Source: Spizellomyces punctatus DAOM BR117 (Eukaryota). Taken from it: a stretch of 29,083 nt of DNA. Under the pieces are notes generated by a model, which was not told the origin of the DNA, did no database searches, and saw nothing but the letters and a program-made list of their open reading frames with translations. Location of the stretch: NCBI GenBank assembly GCA_000182565.2, contig KQ257456.1. One strand, written 5' to 3'. The position numbers and the translations under genes were made by a program. Below, one piece after another: positions 442 to 29,083 of the stretch (its first letter is position 1; every line of letters starts with the position of its first letter).

Positions 442-530
442 AACCTGTAGAGTACGTAGTGTAGAGGTGACAGAAACTGGCACTAGCTACTACACCAGGG
501 AATAAACCGGCGACAACCGGTTCGGAAAAG
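442..530 (-). ncRNA. Fanzor omegaRNA, divergent 'ghost'-type scaffold (530-457) plus flank-derived guide (from 456 downward, CGTACTCTACAGGTT...)
   Basis: Minus strand reads CTTTTCCGAACCGGTTGTCGCCGGTTTATTCCCTGGTGTAGTAGCTAGTGCCAGTTTCTGTCACCTCTACACTA. It aligns with the copy at 28496-28422. Stem AACCGG/CCGGTT is kept and stem GTGTAG/CTACAC covaries with the other copy. Guide length (~15 nt) is assumed from published SpuFz1 RNAs. Confidence 0.8.
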
Positions 531-1208
531 CTAACTAAGCTACTACTAGGCAATTATACACGCAATACGTAACGGTTGGTTCTAACCGGATAATTGCCCA
601 CCACCACACGCGGTCCCTACTAGGCCTTGATCTGGAACTCTTGATGGCATTGAAGCCAGACTCTTGCATCCAGGAGCGAATCGACTGGGCAGCGTCACAA
701 GCCAGAGGATGTTCAGTGACAAGGCTTGGAGACTAGAGAAAATGCATGTCAGAAGATGACCCGATGACAAGAAATAAAATGATGCAATCAGTACATACCA
801 ACCAAGCTCAACCAATGTGGCAGCATAATAGTAGGTTTTGTTATCGGATCCGATTGGTTGCCGCTGGTTCTGATCACGGTTGCTGTCGGGCGGTCGAGGT
901 CCTCGGCACCAGAGCAGTATTCTCATGATTGGACTGAGACTTGTTGGGTGGATGCTTTGAGTCGAGGATGGGTAAAGAGGAAAGAGGGAAGAGGGAGCAG
1001 GTCCCCCGTTTATAGACCTTTGGCATGCGCCTCACCGCAGTTTAAAAAAAAAGCTACATTAGCATGCCACACCGCAGTTTGGAGAACATTAGCATCCATG
1101 CCTCCTCACCGCTTTGAGCAATGATGGGGGTTCTGATTATGCGATATGATTAACCGGATTAATCCGGATAATAATGGGTCCTAGTGCCATTTTCAATCAC
1201 CTCCACAC
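459..1208 (-). mobile_element. Complete 750-bp non-autonomous Fanzor-associated TIR element (Spu-1-like 'ghost'/MITE) with TA target-site duplication
   Basis: 28-bp imperfect TIRs: 459-486 GTGTAGAGGTGACAGAAACTGGCACTAG vs reverse complement of 1181-1208 GTGTGGAGGTGATTGAAAATGGCACTAG (24/28). TA flanks both ends (457-458, 1209-1210). 1209-1212 TATG reads CATA on the minus strand, the known SpuFz1 TAM. An omegaRNA-like scaffold occupies the opposite end. No Fanzor ORF is recognisable inside. Confidence 0.92.
1023..1115. repeat. Three imperfect tandem copies of an (ACATTA)GCATG..CACCGC(AG)TTT unit inside the element
   Basis: 1023-1043 gcatgcgcctcaccgcagttt; 1056-1080 acattagcatgccacaccgcagttt; 1086-1115 acattagcatccatgcctcctcaccgcttt. 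Confidence 0.75.
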
Positions 1209-1499
1209 TATGATATTTTTGAATCCAAAAGGGCAGGAACGAATCAGGGCTTCTCCTCGAGCGGTAAGTGCTTAGTCACTGCTTACGTAACACACGACGC
1301 AACTTGTGACACTTTCATTTGAGGATTCTACAAAGCAAAATTCCCACGCTCCGGTTGACGGTCAGCGTTTTTCAAGAGCATTTTAAACATTTCTTTTTCA
1401 CGGTGGACGTTTTCGTCTGTTTTGGAGAGGGTTACAAACCCACTTGGCTCTTGGGAACTTACCTAGGCAGCATTGGTTGCGGCCGTTGCTTCCGTCAGG

Positions 1500-4400
1500 A
1501 TGCCCTTTTGGAGTAGGAACAAGAAGAGGAGAGCGAGGACGCCTCCTCCTAACCTGCAAACGCCGCCTGGACAGCACCACTCTCCTTCCGCACTGTCCTT
1601 CTTTGGCTTTAGAAAGCGGAGTCCTTCGCCGTTTACCGCACTCCGTTCTCGTGATTCTCCCTCGTCTCCAGAGTCTGGTGGACATGGAGGCAGTGCCAGA
1701 GATCTACCCTACCACCCACACCACTACAGCGAGGGATTCCTTTCTCCACCAGACCGGCGCTTTAACTTTGAATTAGAATATGATAGAGCGGCCGCCGAAG
1801 CTGCTTCTGACAAGCGTGCTCCTCGGGTACCCTCAAAGGCCCATGAGAGCGTGTCAAACAAGCCGGCAACGACACCGGTCGTCGTTGTCACGTCAACAGG
1901 ACCGTCGTGCGTAATACAGTGCGATCGTCACAAGACTGTGCAGTGGGCGTTAGAGAAGGCTAGTACATTGCTTCCAAAGGACCACTCGGAGTTGGTGGAG
2001 GCTAGAGGACCTGATGGGAAGAAGGCTCTGGGAAGCGAGAGAGTTTTGGATTTTTGTGGAGTCAATAAAGTGAGTGTTGACTGGAAGAATCGCTATACAT
2101 ATATATATGATCAGGCAGTTCTGGTAATGTTGCATATATGGATACTGATAAACTTCATTTGACGGTGTGTGTAGATTCTCGTAGTTACAGTGGCGACTCC
2201 CGAATTCAATCGACGTGCTAGTGTAGACTCGCCTGGTGGATATATAAGCGCCCGGGACGGTCGCGAAGCTTTTGATTTTGAAGATTTGCGACGCAGCTCA
2301 AAATTGGATCGAGAGGAGCGTCATTCGAGACGGCTTGCCTTGGTCGGATCGAAGGGCCGTCGGGATGCGGACGTCTCTTCGCGAACCCTTTTACCAGAGT
2401 CGCGCGAACAAAGTTTCGATGCTGGCATCGAGGCTGACATTCTTGCAGGCCATCCTTCGCGTATGCCCAGACCTGTCAGTCCCAGGTTCGATCGTGCTGC
2501 TACCCCCTCTCCTCTACCGTTTGAAGGACGTCGCTCAAGTAGGGACGAACGTGCAAGCCGGCCTAGTCGTGATGACTATGCTGAAAGGCGCGGCAGCAGA
2601 AATAGCAGGGAGGAAAGGTCAAGTAGAGATAGTCAAGATGACCGAGCAAGTCGCACTAGTCGAGATGAGAGCAGAAGCAGTCGCGAGTTTGGTCGAGCGC
2701 GTTCTCCTGTTCGGTCATCCTCTCGTCTTTCGGGACTTGACAGTGTCATGGAGGACTTGGCGAAAATGGCTGATCATGAAGGGGGTTGGGTTTCTGCTGT
2801 GAGCCCAAATCAACGTATCAGCCATGGAGATCCTTCTTCAGGTCGTGCTGGTCGTGTATTAGAGGACCAGAAAATGGTGCATGAAGCCGAGAGCTACTCC
2901 TCTCTGGCTGCACCAGCTGCCGAGGTAAGCGGCTCACAGCGATCCCAATCCCCGCTCCCGAGGCTCCTTACGCAGCCGTTGCGAAGATCTCCATCTGAGT
3001 CATCATCTTTGCTTGCGCAGGAGAGCCCTGTCTCTAGGAATCCGCTGAATCGGCACGACGTTGATCGACGCTTGACGGAGATTTTGACCTCTGGTATGCA
3101 CATGAACATCAAAATATAGCGAGTAATATTGTATTTACAGTTATGTCCTGGTTAGTTGGAATGGAGATCGATGATGCCCTGAACGAATTATCCCTTGGAG
3201 ATGGTAAGGCTGGGTACTGCTTTACACGGGTATGATTGCACGGTTAACAGTACATGCAGAACGCACAGACTCAGAACCACCCTCCCCACCGCCAACATCT
3301 CCCGTTGATGAGCTTCCGGACTTTGATGATGTGTCGGATGATAGCTCGTCGCGACGCTCTGTTCGAAAATCCCGCCGCTTGACGCGAATATCGCGTGCAT
3401 CGGCTCTCGATATTTTTGCAGCGTTAGGTATGAACGCCGAATATCTGAATGTGACATTGAGCAGAAAGGCTGATGTGTATTCAACGTATGATGCAGAGCA
3501 ACAAGCGAAGGAAGAGCCTACACCGGACCTAGATACTCCCATGCTTGCCCTACCGGTTTCCGATACCGCTTCCCGGAGAGTGAGTCGCATTTCGCGAGCT
3601 TCCGCGCTTGACATGTTCTCCAGTATGCGCAGCTCGAGCAGGTCAGATGATGGGGAAGACGAAGGATATGAACAAGTGGAACGAGAAGAACTAATAGATG
3701 CGGAACCTCGCTTGTCTTCCGTTGATGTACCTAATCCTACACCAGCACCAGCTCCGCCACCTCCTCCATCTGATAGTGTTGTTCCGTCTGCATTGGTTAC
3801 AACAGCCCCAGCTGCCCCAACGCTGCCAGTGACGAGTACGGAGGCAAAAGCGGGGCCACCTCCACCACCACCGCTCCCACCGGTGATGGTTTTCGAAGAG
3901 TCAGCAATTCCTCCTCCACCTCCACCTCCACCTGTGATGACTTTTGAACCCTCCGCGATCCCGCCGCCGCCGCCCCCACCACCTGTCATGGTTTTTGAAG
4001 ACTCTTCAATACCGCCCCCACCACCACCACCACCTGTCATGGTGTTTGAAAACTCGCCAATTCCGCCCCCTCCTCCACCACCTCCGCCCATGATATTTGA
4101 GAATGCCGGCAGCATACCTCCACCGCCGCCGCCTCCACCGCCCCCTCCTCCAGCTCTTGGGATCCCTCCGCCACCTCCTCCTCCACCTCCACCTCCCGGT
4201 GCAGGCCCCCCACCACCACCCCCGCCCCCTCCACCAGGCGGTGGGCCACCACCTCCACCACCGCCGCCATCAACAGCTGCGCCCGCATCCGCAGGAGACC
4301 TTCAATCTGCATTTTTGGCAGAGCTGCGAGATCCTAATAGAAGAAAAAAGCTTCGGAAGGTCAAAGTACCAGAGAGACCTCCTCCATCGGAAGCGGACAA

Positions 4401-5684
4401 AGCAGCGCAGGAGGCAAAGCAGAAGGAAGCGGAGAAGGGTAATGACGAAGCGGAGCGGCAGGAGCTGTATATTGAGCTTCTAGGCTACATGGAAGCACCG
4501 AATGGGAATATTGAGGAGCTCTCAGACAAAGCAAAGACTCAAACGAATTTAGTGCGAAGCTTTGTGTTCACTTTAATCCGCAAGGGATGGGTCCGTGGGT
4601 ATCGGGTCACTGACAATCTGCCAGAGGAAAAGGAGACCAAGGGCCCCAAAGGGAAGTCCAAAGGTCGCGCGCCATTGAAGGTGTGGCTGGGACGAGAGGG
4701 CATGATGTGCATCGAGCTGGAAGATTTAACGGGCGAAGAGCTGGTTGCCAAAGTTGGTGGCGAGAAAGCAGACCCACTTTCTATGCCAAATGATGATGGA
4801 AATGTGGTCAAACGCAAAGGCGAAGTGGCCCGTGTATACATGTATCGATTTGACGAGAAGTCAAAGCAACACGTCTTGGATGAAGTCGCGCTGGTCGCCA
4901 CAGGATCGTTCCCCAAAAAAACCAAGCGCTTTGATGACCCCGAACCACCCCAGGACTCGAGCTTGCATAATAGACGGAAATGGGAAGCGTGGAATGAAAA
5001 GAAACTTCAGTACCTGCAGAGTGACTGGCCGCAATTTGAGTTGATTTTCAACAAACTGGTGAGTGCCACCTGTCTTCTGCCTGAAAAAAAGTACACTGGC
5101 GCTTATTGTGTCCAATCACGTAGATGGCTACATCGTCTATTGTACAGTCCATTCACCATCAGCTCCATCAAACACTTGCTGAAATGCGGGCTATGGGTGA
5201 AGCCATGCATGACACATTTGCAGCGTTCCCTGTGACGCAAGTGCGCCGAATCGTAGAGTCCATACCGGGGCGGATCAAGGAAGTTGCAAAGAAGCTTCAG
5301 AAGCAGACTGGCATCATCATTCGCGATGAGTCTTTGAAGTTGACTCCGGAATTCCTGCGCTTGATGAATTTGGCACCTGATGGTACTGATAAGCAAGACA
5401 CGGCGACTGGTCCTGGCATTGGCGGGGCTCCGATATCCGAAACGCCATCTAACCCAATGGCGCGACCTGCCACCTTAGTTCATTCCCAGACTGCCCCGTC
5501 CTTGTCCACTGCGGCTGAACCAAACGCGACAGGTGAACAGTCGGGGAGTGCGAATATGCTCAATCCAAAGGGCATGATTACGATGGCGGGACTTCCCTTT
5601 GACGTCCTTCTCCCGTTGTTGAAGAAGTCCTTCAACAAGCAGGAGATTGGCGATGACAGGTTGTCGAGGCGTTTGACGCTATAA
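1500..5684 (+). CDS. Large (~1,300 aa) polyproline- and WH2-containing putative actin regulator, 5 exons
   Basis: ATG 1500. GT-AG introns 2070-2174, 3094-3155 (or -3140), 3204-3250 (or -3259) and 5059-5123 join ORFs 1473.., 2190.., 3232.. and 5124.. in frame. Stop at 5682-5684. Long polyproline tract, followed by a WH2-like helix+LxKV motif GDLQSAFLAELRDPNRRKKLRKV (4294-4362). Confidence 0.85.
3883..4137 (+). repeat. Five coding tandem repeats with a 51-nt (17-aa) period, VMxFExSxI-P8
   Basis: Units start at 3883, 3934, 3985, 4036 and 4087: VMVFEESAI, VMTFEPSAI, VMVFEDSSI, VMVFENSPI and PMIFENAGSI, each followed by a proline run. Confidence 0.9.
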
Positions 5685-20638: not shown

Positions 20639-22035
20639 TTATAAACGCGAAAGTGTATGCTGTAATGTGCTCTAAGAGGGCAGAGAGTAGGAAATTGTAA
20701 TAAATTGGTAAAGCAACGAGGTCCAATTCCCAAAACGAGATGGGGTCGGAGATGGGCAACTCGTTAAAAACCTGCGATGACATGCCATTTCCCCATTCAA
20801 ATGACCACATTCCCGTGATCCATCCGTTCACCCACGTGGACAAGTCATTTGAAGCCAAAAGCAGGAAAACGTGTCGCTTGAAGCATTTTTTGTTTACCTT
20901 TCAGACCCTCATGCGTTCATCAACTTTCAATGCATCGTTTAACAGGATATCGTCCTGTATGAATGTATTCGCAATGGAATCCCCGTGCAGGGAAACTGTA
21001 AGGCGTACGAAGAATGTGGATGAGAATCCGATTGAGTTGCCCTTTCCCTTTTTCGTACTTGGCGGCGGATGAATGGCAAAATTCCCAGATTTGGGGTGTT
21101 GACTTGTCTATTCACCCACTCAATCTGCAGTCGCCCTCTTTGCCAATCATAGCATATGGCATATGGCACCAGAACGGAACGGTGTATTCTGACCTCATTG
21201 GACAAAATCAAGAATTACTAGCGTGTGAGCATCTGCTTTCAGATACTCCTTCCATTGGACATTCATTTGACTAAAACAAAAGCGTCGGATCAGAGAAGCC
21301 TACAGGCATTTTCAGCACGGTCAGATCTAAGACGACCGTCGTGATATAAAGTCTCATCAGTTCCGCGCAAAAAGCTCCAGTTTCAGTCGGTGAGAATCCT
21401 ACTATTCCTCGTGTGGAACGAAACACACAAGACAGCTCGAGCCATTCCAGACTAAGAATAGTATGACCTCATAGACAAAAACAGGTTTATAGATACCCAG
21501 TCAGACGGAGCCCACCATCCTTCCTACCGGGTTGGAATATCCCAGAGGAGCAATCTTCAACGGGAGGGAGGCGACCAAAAGGCACGCCTCAAACGCTCCC
21601 CACTTCTCGTTGGATAGAGGCTCTCCGTCTCATCATCCTGGGTGATATGTGCGACTTTGTTAGAAAACAAAGCGAGGTACGACAGACTCCACATATGATC
21701 CTGAAGAGTTGGTCGATAAAGAAAACAAGAGGAGGACGAGGAACGACGGGTTTTTATAGCCCTGGAGCCGCATCACGCGAGTGGCGCAATGACAAAAAAA
21801 AGCATGAGCCAATCACCGGTGCAGCCACTGTTAACATGGAAACAGGACTGCGCAAATTCGCTTGTTCAAATCCACACGTGATCCCCTTTCAAAAATGTTC
21901 AGATATCGAACAAAAAAAACCAATGTTATCTATAAAAAAAATACAGTATGACGTCCTATAACAAGAACCCAATGTACCTGCATCAAAGATTCATCCTATA
22001 AGCCAACCATTCTATGCACCGCTCATTGAAAAAAA

Positions 22036-28164: not shown

Positions 28165-28406
28165 GCTCAGCAATTCTACATGATTTATTGACAGTTGTGT
28201 TAAGTCGTAGGTAATGGGTAGTATTGGAATAGTGTCGTTATAGGAGTTGTAGTAGTAGCGTTGTAAAGACAGGATGGAAGCCAATTTGGCATATTTTTGG
28301 GGAGCAAGGGCGGTGGCATTCAAAATTACTATTTGTATGATTTGTTTCGGTTCCTATCATTTTCTGTGTCTTAATACATTTTCATGTTTCTTTTGGGAAC
28401 TGGCTC

Positions 28407-28496
28407 TACAATTGGGGTTAGTAGTGCGGAGCCGGTGGGTATTGGCACTAGCACCCGCACCAGGGATTGAACCGCGCGACAACCGGTTCGGAAACC
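28407..28496 (-). ncRNA. Fanzor omegaRNA, SpuFz1-type 75-nt scaffold (28496-28422) plus flank-derived guide (from 28421 downward, CTAACCCCAATTGTA...)
   Basis: Minus strand reads GGTTTCCGAACCGGTTGTCGCGCGGTTCAATCCCTGGTGCGGGTGCTAGTGCCAATACCCACCGGCTCCGCACTA, nearly identical to the SpuFz1 omegaRNA scaffold as I recall it. It lies ~20 nt downstream of the Fanzor stop and ends at the element boundary. Stems GAACCG/CGGTTC and GTGCGG/CCGCAC. Confidence 0.9.
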
Positions 28497-29083
28497 TTAA
28501 TCTAACTAGTCTACGCTACGCTACCACTGGAACACCCCTCCTGAACACCTCTGGTCTACCGTGTCCATCCAACATTGATTGCATGATTGCCAGCATGTTG
28601 CAGGTTGACAGTGTATCTCGATTCCAGTAGCGCATTGTCCAGGCTTGCTGCAAACAGTTAGGGTTGGTACAACCCAGCAATCCATGGACTTTTTCAACCT
28701 TGCCTTCTTGTCATCACCAAGGTCTTGAATGAGGTCATGTTTTGAAGTCCTTTTCAAGGAAGTGTAACGACGAGGACGTCTTCGAGAGATCGCGAGTAAG
28801 CCCAAATCGGACGCGGGAAGCACGAATCGCGTGACCAACTCCACCGATTGGGTTACCGCGACCGAAAAAACCGGTTCGGAGAATGGCAATTGGCGCATTA
28901 GATTTCAGCGTGCCTCGTACAACCTGTGGAGGCCCGAGCCAGTGCGGAAAAGGAAGAGATCGGTACCGCCACCAATAAATCAGTTGCGGTGCAGCGACAC
29001 CCATTAGTTTAGTTTAGTTTAACAGTTTATCCAAGAATCTTGTATAAAAAGGATGTATTCAATAAAATAAGTCGGGGCAGAAG
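28424..29083 (-). mobile_element. Spu-1-type Fanzor element: omegaRNA end with TIR and TA; internally deleted/decayed; the other end is not visible in the window
   Basis: TA at 28422-28423, then terminal sequence GTGCGGAGCCGGTGGGTATTGGCACTAG (28424-28451), the omegaRNA scaffold and a Fanzor C-terminal relic. No matching TIR is seen before 29083, so the extent beyond ~28880 is uncertain. Confidence 0.82.
28516..28782 (-). pseudogene. Fanzor1 (TnpB-like RuvC nuclease) C-terminal pseudogene fragment
   Basis: A single frame reads KTSSSLHFLEKDFKT*PHSRPW**QEGKVEKVHGLLGCTNPNCLQQAWTMRYWNRDTLSTCNMLAIMQSMLDGHGRPEVFRRGVPVVA*. It includes the second Zn-binding pair CxxxxC and the RuvC-III WNRD motif of TnpB/Fanzor, and closely matches the SpuFz1 C-terminus as recalled. 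Internal stops at 28735-37, 28714-16 and 28711-13. Confidence 0.92.

Follow-up and report, generated by a model that had tools for sequence, protein, structure and literature searches.

Paired base changes in the terminal hairpins of a canonical-type and a ghost omegaRNA scaffold of Spizellomyces punctatus

The locus and its two scaffold copies

The analysed stretch of DNA, hereafter the window, comprises 29,083 nucleotides of contig KQ257456.1 from Spizellomyces punctatus DAOM BR117 (assembly GCA_000182565.2). Its content is eukaryotic. Pfam searches of 84 window ORFs identified host genes of the F-BAR/SH3, Sec1, C2H2, MFS, glyoxalase and pseudouridine synthase types, and no TnpB or transposase domain was found among these ORFs. 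Two segments of the window, 456-528 and 28421-28494, are related to each other in the same orientation, with 54 nt at 70% and 19 nt at 100% identity. Read on the minus strand, they hold two scaffold copies, copy 1 at 530..457 (74 nt) and copy 2 at 28496..28422 (75 nt). The features at the two loci are as follows.

442..456, minus strand: putative 15-nt guide of copy 1 in the flank outside the right end, assigned from the published layout of scaffold and guide
457..531, minus strand: ghost omegaRNA scaffold, copy 1; 74 nt at 530..457, 75 nt with the G at 531
457..486, no strand: right-end inverted repeat, TA included, which also supplies stem 2 with its 3' half; matches inverted 1210..1181 at 86.7% over 30 nt
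532..1180, minus strand: interior of the ghost element, non-coding; ORFs without a Pfam family, no Rfam match, high depth in four of four runs
1181..1210, no strand: left-end inverted repeat with TA at 1209-1210; GTGTGG when read from outside, 5' arm of stem 2 absent
1209..1212, minus strand: CATA just upstream of the left end (the TA plus the conserved CA; TATG on the plus strand), identical to the SpuFz1 TAM as published
28407..28421, minus strand: putative guide of copy 2 in flanking DNA, assigned as for copy 1
28422..28496, minus strand: canonical-type SpuFz1 omegaRNA scaffold, copy 2; 75 nt, TA end (28423..28422)
28516..28803, minus strand: 3' remnant of a Fanzor1 gene; last 64 codons intact, three in-frame TGA upstream of them

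The positions and letters of both copies and of the left repeat agree with those given in a first-pass annotation of this DNA, and the conserved blocks that it had noticed in both scaffolds are real: CTAGTGCCA occurs three times in the window against 0.08 expected, and AACCGGTTCGG three times against 0.32 expected. A covariance model built from the two copies scored copy 1 at 93.1 bits and copy 2 at 100.3 bits, and detected no third scaffold in the window. A segment at 28827-28885 (minus strand), which carries CCGAACCGGTT and loosely resembles the 5' half of the scaffold, reached only 4.5 bits (E 9) in this model, and the likeness is therefore probably due to chance. Rfam returned no match for 380-1300 at E values up to 10, and only three chance-level snoRNA matches (E 7.7-8.8) for 28300-29083. 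When metagenomes were scanned for further scaffolds, a 24-base degenerate pattern gave no match, and a 17-base pattern gave 21 loci, none of which was scaffold-like outside the pattern. A tRNA-derived element, prompted by the T-loop-like GGTTCAATCC, was considered and rejected: ARAGORN found no tRNA gene in the window, and there was no Rfam match at the gathering threshold.

A canonical-type scaffold behind a decayed Fanzor1 gene

The identity of copy 2 follows from its surroundings as well as its own letters. On the minus strand, the product of a 64-codon ORF at 28516-28710 aligns to the C-terminus of SpuFz1 (8gkh_P residues 967-1032, E 9.3e-34) with a two-residue gap, and copy 2 begins 19 nt downstream of its stop codon. 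The three in-frame TGA codons of the remnant correspond to CGA in the SPu-1 consensus, all of them CpG transitions. ORFs further upstream gave no PDB match, and no SpuFz1 similarity was detectable beyond about 28800. The three stops and the lack of PDB matches further up indicate that the gene accompanying copy 2 is a decayed, partial Fanzor1 copy; it would be 5'-truncated and runs towards the end of the window. The Fanzor1 element SPu-1 of S. punctatus described by Bao and Jurka 2013 (PMC3627910) has a 3' end nearly identical to the minus strand of copy 2 and coding DNA that matches 28516-28803, and its 5' end bears the same repeat as its 3' end.

According to Saito et al. 2023 (PMC10432273), the SpuFz1 omegaRNA consists of a 75-nt scaffold that ends in UA and is followed by a guide of 14-15 nt, with CATA as the TAM. 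The RNA is expressed at 88-90 nt and bound by SpuFz1, a result obtained at the level of the family. Their cryo-EM structure shows two stems with a 6-nt linker between them, and in it the C40-G70 segment makes no protein contact and is dispensable in human cells. Compared by eye, copy 2 is identical to the published SpuFz1 scaffold at 73 of 75 positions, nt 2 and nt 10 being the exceptions, and it matches all nucleotides that the sections of Saito et al. 2023 cited here single out: U5, C6, C7, U16-G20, G22, A29-C34, U35, G37, C40, G70, A72 and A75. Like the canonical omegaRNA (PDB 8GKH), copy 2 follows a Fz stop codon, and the inverted repeat at its end is the same. The locus differs from canonical SPu-1 (PMC3627910) in that its gene is a remnant with three in-frame stops, besides the differences at nt 2 and nt 10. 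The omegaRNA reading of the first-pass annotation was thus right, being borne out by the match to the Fanzor C-terminus, the match to the SPu-1 3' end and the matches to published scaffolds.

A high-copy ghost element around copy 1

Saito et al. 2023 (PMC10432273) reported 42 Fz loci, 19 of them full length, and 134 "ghost Spu-1 elements", which carry the repeats and the omegaRNA region without a Fz ORF. In their account, seven positions distinguish the 30-nt ghost repeats from the Fz repeats, a CA is conserved before the left end, and a 3-nt feature replaces the 8-nt hairpin loop of stem 2. In the window, a 750-bp element occupies 459-1208, bounded by terminal inverted repeats and with a TA on either side. 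Another copy likewise begins at the TA (457); no empty site was seen, which leaves the TA a putative target-site duplication. No Fz ORF lies between the repeats, the element being only 750 bp long, and among the 84 ORFs searched, the two stop-to-stop ones that lie within 459-1208 and reach at least 90 aa have no Pfam family. Copy 1 accordingly resides in a nuclease-less element, as had been proposed, and the 3' arm of its terminal hairpin does double as a transposon end, since it falls within the 30-nt terminal inverted repeat.

The copy 1 scaffold has two stems, a 6-nt linker and a TA end (458..457). It is identical at 74 of 74 positions to "ghost1" in Supplementary Data 1 of PMC13434818 (compared by eye) and one nucleotide apart from Ghost4 as given by Saito et al. 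2023. The left-end repeat (1181-1210, plus strand) ends in CCACAC, which reads GTGTGG from outside. The first-pass annotation had these letters right; its description of them as an intermediate state is conjecture. Against the SPu-1 left end, the ghost left end differs at seven positions (by eye). In the covariance model it scores 10.6 bits (E 0.27), with a 7-nt gap in place of the 5' arm, and its terminal region is without such a hairpin (z +0.35). A palindrome at 1146-1175 within the ghost left end (AACCGG..CCGG) aligns with stem-loop 1 of the scaffold model, which gives the left end the look of an omegaRNA region that has been copied in inverted form and partly deleted.

The abundance of this family was assessed from contigs of four public runs (X1, X9, X14 and the RNA library X12) placed on positions 1-2000, where parts left uncovered are uninformative. 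In X1, depth was 2 before position 457 and about 4 after 1273, and rose to 77-528 within 457-1212; X9, X14 and X12 showed the same rise within the ghost element. Alignments of other family copies begin at 457 and end at 1212, and no variant reached 10% of depth in 457-503. The ends of the element had greater contig depth than its interior. Beyond 538 many contigs depart from the window sequence, indicating that the terminal 80 nt are common to elements with different interiors. RNA-library contigs cover 457-1005, as contigs that show neither RNA ends, strand, a discrete RNA nor transcription. Judged by its sequence, 459-1208 is one of the high-copy "ghost Spu-1 elements" of Saito et al. 2023: it has the 30-nt repeats, the CA before the left end, many copies and a stem 2 with a 3-nt loop, and nothing structural sets it apart. 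As a separate observation, 66-70 nt within 732-799 are skipped by many family copies in X9, X14 and X12, which represents an internal length variant.

Folding of the terminal hairpins and pair changes between the two copies

On the minus strand of copy 1, the 5' arm GTGTAG (complement of plus-strand 490-495) pairs with CTACAC (complement of 459-464), and in copy 2 GTGCGG pairs with CCGCAC (complement of 28424-28429). In the published numbering, C40-G70 has become U40-A70 and G41-C69 has become A41-U69. Both double changes keep stem 2 paired, and the two covarying pairs noted at the outset in the terminal hairpin were thereby upheld. The 51-nt terminal hairpins gave z scores of -2.4 for copy 1 and -2.9 for copy 2, and the whole copy 1 scaffold folded at -24 kcal/mol (z -3.0). 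The minus strand folded better than the plus strand in both comparisons (z -2.99 versus -1.40, and -1.84 versus -1.49). In the MFE folds, the loop of stem 2 measured 3 nt in copy 1 and 8 nt in copy 2.

When the two copies were aligned as two rows, 42 of 44 cells paired in the canonical register, versus 32-50% with the 3' partners slid. Exactly two pairs had changed on both sides in this alignment, and two pairs were lost in the ghost. All five one-sided transition changes stayed paired, four as G.U wobbles and one as a U.G that became U-A. The distal part of the hairpin, which the first-pass annotation took to have diverged freely, has not done so: in the ghost its three inner pairs are retained as G.U wobbles that keep to the canonical register. 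A shuffle control gave 117/500, a figure that carries no information for an alignment of two rows. As a null model, 200,000 random mutants of copy 2 were generated with 14 changes across nt 35-75, 10 of them transitions, as between the two copies; 15% had at least two double-changed pairs that were still paired, and 4.8% kept at least 13 of 15 pairs. The covariation signal from the two window copies alone is marginal.

Pair changes among published ghost scaffolds

The collation in PMC13434818 (2026) comprises 126 ghost scaffolds, representatives of which were tested there. Its Supplementary Data 1 was tallied by eye over 128 rows, namely the canonical scaffold, "ghost1" and 126 further ghost scaffolds. 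Five motif counts predicted from the tally (35, 31, 7, 6 and 1) equalled those obtained with a tool, and a sixth, unpredicted motif occurred 45 times. The rows comprised 39 of the right-end type, about 68 of the left-end type, 13 of a third repeat family, 7 odd ones and the canonical scaffold.

Pairing in the 39 right-end rows was largely kept. Pair 40-70 was U-A in 37, U.G in one (gst22) and broken in one (gst105); pair 41-69 was A-U in 36, G.U in gst22 and broken in two (gst65 and gst113). Thus gst22 holds both of these stem 2 pairs as wobbles. Another row, gst23, has a different distal stem 2 that is fully complementary, with U-A at 42-68 and 43-67. In stem 1, pair 13-23 was G-C in 29 rows, A-U in six, G.U in one (gst72), an A/C mismatch in two and absent in one. 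The same double change was seen in reads as variants 518 C>T and 509 G>A, with matching depths in X1, X9 and X14. The A-U rows may all be descendants of one event. Single changes in individual ghost rows were pair-breaking in about nine cases and pair-keeping in about seven (by eye), and numbers this similar would fit neutral decay of the copies. Taken together, the published copies lend some support to covariation through a third covarying pair, an all-wobble intermediate and another compensated variant, and the double wobble of gst22 may be read as a sign of precisely the intermediate that belongs to a route along which the stem stays intact.

Several observations concern the composition of the collation itself. 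About 68 of the 126 "ghost omegaRNA scaffolds" are ghost left ends, the same as window 1136-1210 (plus strand), with several rows identical. These rows have neither the linker nor stem 2's 5' arm, and the low-activity examples gst7, gst73 and gst98 named in PMC13434818 are of this type. It is therefore possible that the "distinct second clade" of that study represents the wrong end of the element and not a variant of the scaffold. Thirteen of the 126 rows belong to the third repeat family, which has the end CACCTGCACACTA and a different 5' part, and gst5 and gst78 resemble nested or inverted pieces.

Relation to known systems

In bacterial IS200/IS605 elements with TnpB, the omegaRNA is encoded at the right end and its guide is flanking DNA. 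Nuclease-less derivatives of these elements can use a nuclease in trans. Spu-1 elements differ from TnpB elements in having terminal inverted repeats and TA flanks, and their RNA differs from the TnpB omegaRNA in being without the TnpB pseudoknot (PMC10432273). With Tc1/mariner-type MITEs the ghost shares TA flanks, terminal inverted repeats, a short non-coding body and high copy number; unlike them, Spu-1 repeats have no linked transposase in the account of Saito et al. 2023, and one end encodes a functional RNA. A plain Tc1/mariner MITE was considered too; the match of the copy 2 right end to SPu-1 was what decided the identification.

Much of what is described here is already known: the object itself, the ghost form without a nuclease, the altered stem 2 and the use for genome editing have been in print since 2023 and 2026. 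Saito et al. 2023 (PMC10432273) reported that ghost scaffolds from four loci edit at levels comparable to improved canonical scaffolds, and PMC13434818 named gst9 and gst25, which have single stem mismatches, among the better editors. The suggestion that the ghost form is a scaffold variant of use for engineering was thus correct in that ghost scaffolds do support editing; it was not a new idea, having been tested in 2023 and 2026. Saito et al. 2023 (PMC10432273) make no mention of compensatory or covarying change in their main text, and PMC13434818 makes none of compensatory change; a literature search on Fanzor ghosts returned no paper besides these two.

Proposed mechanism and the question of selection

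The two copies are very probably two Spu-1-type right ends, copy 2 a canonical one behind a decayed Fanzor1 gene and copy 1 that of a ghost element, which would work as follows. RNA would be transcribed outward across the right end, and its 75 nt would fold into stem-loop 1, the 6-nt linker and stem 2, with the next 14-15 nt of flanking DNA serving as guide. SpuFz1 supplied by intact genes elsewhere would bind the scaffold and cut at CATA plus a guide match, and the target of the copy 1 locus would be the unoccupied insertion site. The ghost repeat would have diverged (G70 to A, C69 to U) and the internal 5' arm would have followed suit (C40 to U, G41 to A). We infer that the ghost copy 1 locus is transcribed; ghost RNA would presumably act in trans in the fungus, and selection would be the presumed cause of the double changes.

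It is plausible that the RNA stem constrains the terminal repeat, and the published copies lend this idea some support. The two double changes keep stem 2, which is present in the solved SpuFz1 RNP (PMC10432273), and the ghost's two repeats differ at repeat position 5, where only the right-end letter pairs with A41. The pairs concerned open the C40-G70 segment, which the same source reports as uncontacted and dispensable in human cells; this counts against selection as the cause. Selection acting on each copy is further spoken against by the mismatched gst9 and gst25 among the better editors, by the similar numbers of pair-breaking and pair-keeping single changes, and by the possibly single origin of the A-U rows. 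That the right-end repeat and the internal arm of stem 2 co-evolved under RNA selection, which would have shaped a transposon DNA terminus, is a tentative idea that we hold to be possible and somewhat doubtful. Purifying selection on guide function, as advanced in the first-pass annotation, is more than the double changes can carry; these amount to one canonical/ghost split with one event per pair, which is not significant alone.

The principal rival to co-evolution is that the double changes arose from mutation bias, whether RIP or CpG bias, and chance. Both arms contain CG, a self-complementary dinucleotide that is hypermutable by deamination, so that both arms would drift independently to TG and then to TA. 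All four changes are indeed C/T or G/A transitions at CG, as are the three CGA to TGA changes of the adjacent Fz remnant, and transitions make up 10 of the 14 differences across nt 35-75. The left-end repeat is in the one-step TG state, the random mutants show at least two compensated pairs in 15% of cases, in individual ghost copies pair-breaking and pair-keeping changes are about equally frequent (by eye), and the two covarying pairs stem from one lineage split without repeated events. However, the second hit in each arm is not CpG-driven, since the first hit removes the CpG, and the five of five one-sided transitions that stayed paired would have P about 0.03 if half did so by chance. The published rows also speak against drift alone: the further double change at 13-23 is found in six of 39 rows, with G.U in one row, as well as in three runs, gst22 holds the exact double-wobble state, and the stem of gst23 has been re-made in fully complementary form. 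We regard mutation bias and chance as an unlikely explanation of the double changes.

A very improbable alternative is that conservation of the hairpin serves transposition at the DNA level, as a structure or as a palindrome bound by protein, and does not concern the RNA. The 3' arm is a terminal inverted repeat, the left end has the palindrome resembling stem 1 (1146-1175), and the discussion of PMC10432273 states that no transposase for Spu-1 elements is known, all of which such a role could accommodate. Stem 2 is nevertheless confined to the right end, the left end being without the 5' arm; several pairs are G.U and would be A/C mismatches on the opposite strand; folding is better for the minus than for the plus strand; and the solved SpuFz1 complex contains the stems in RNA form (PMC10432273).

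If co-evolution under RNA selection were true, ghosts would persist as trans-acting carriers of SpuFz1 guides, a eukaryotic counterpart of the bacterial nuclease-less omegaRNA elements. The additions to what is in print are small: compensated changes with wobble intermediates in stems 1 and 2 among natural copies, and a right-end repeat that differs from its left-end counterpart at the place where a pairing partner is needed in the RNA. Compensated stem changes could guide the design of scaffolds and the testing of whether ghosts are selected as guide carriers. The significance beyond confirmation of known ghost scaffolds is little.

Other features of the window

Two further features lie between the scaffold loci. 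A U3 snoRNA gene was identified at 21496-21716 on the minus strand (65.2 bits, E 2.6e-12). On the plus strand, 3735-4270 consists of proline-codon-rich repeats that include four 51-nt tandem units, and these are enclosed by a 675-aa stop-to-stop ORF (3208-5232) without a Pfam family.
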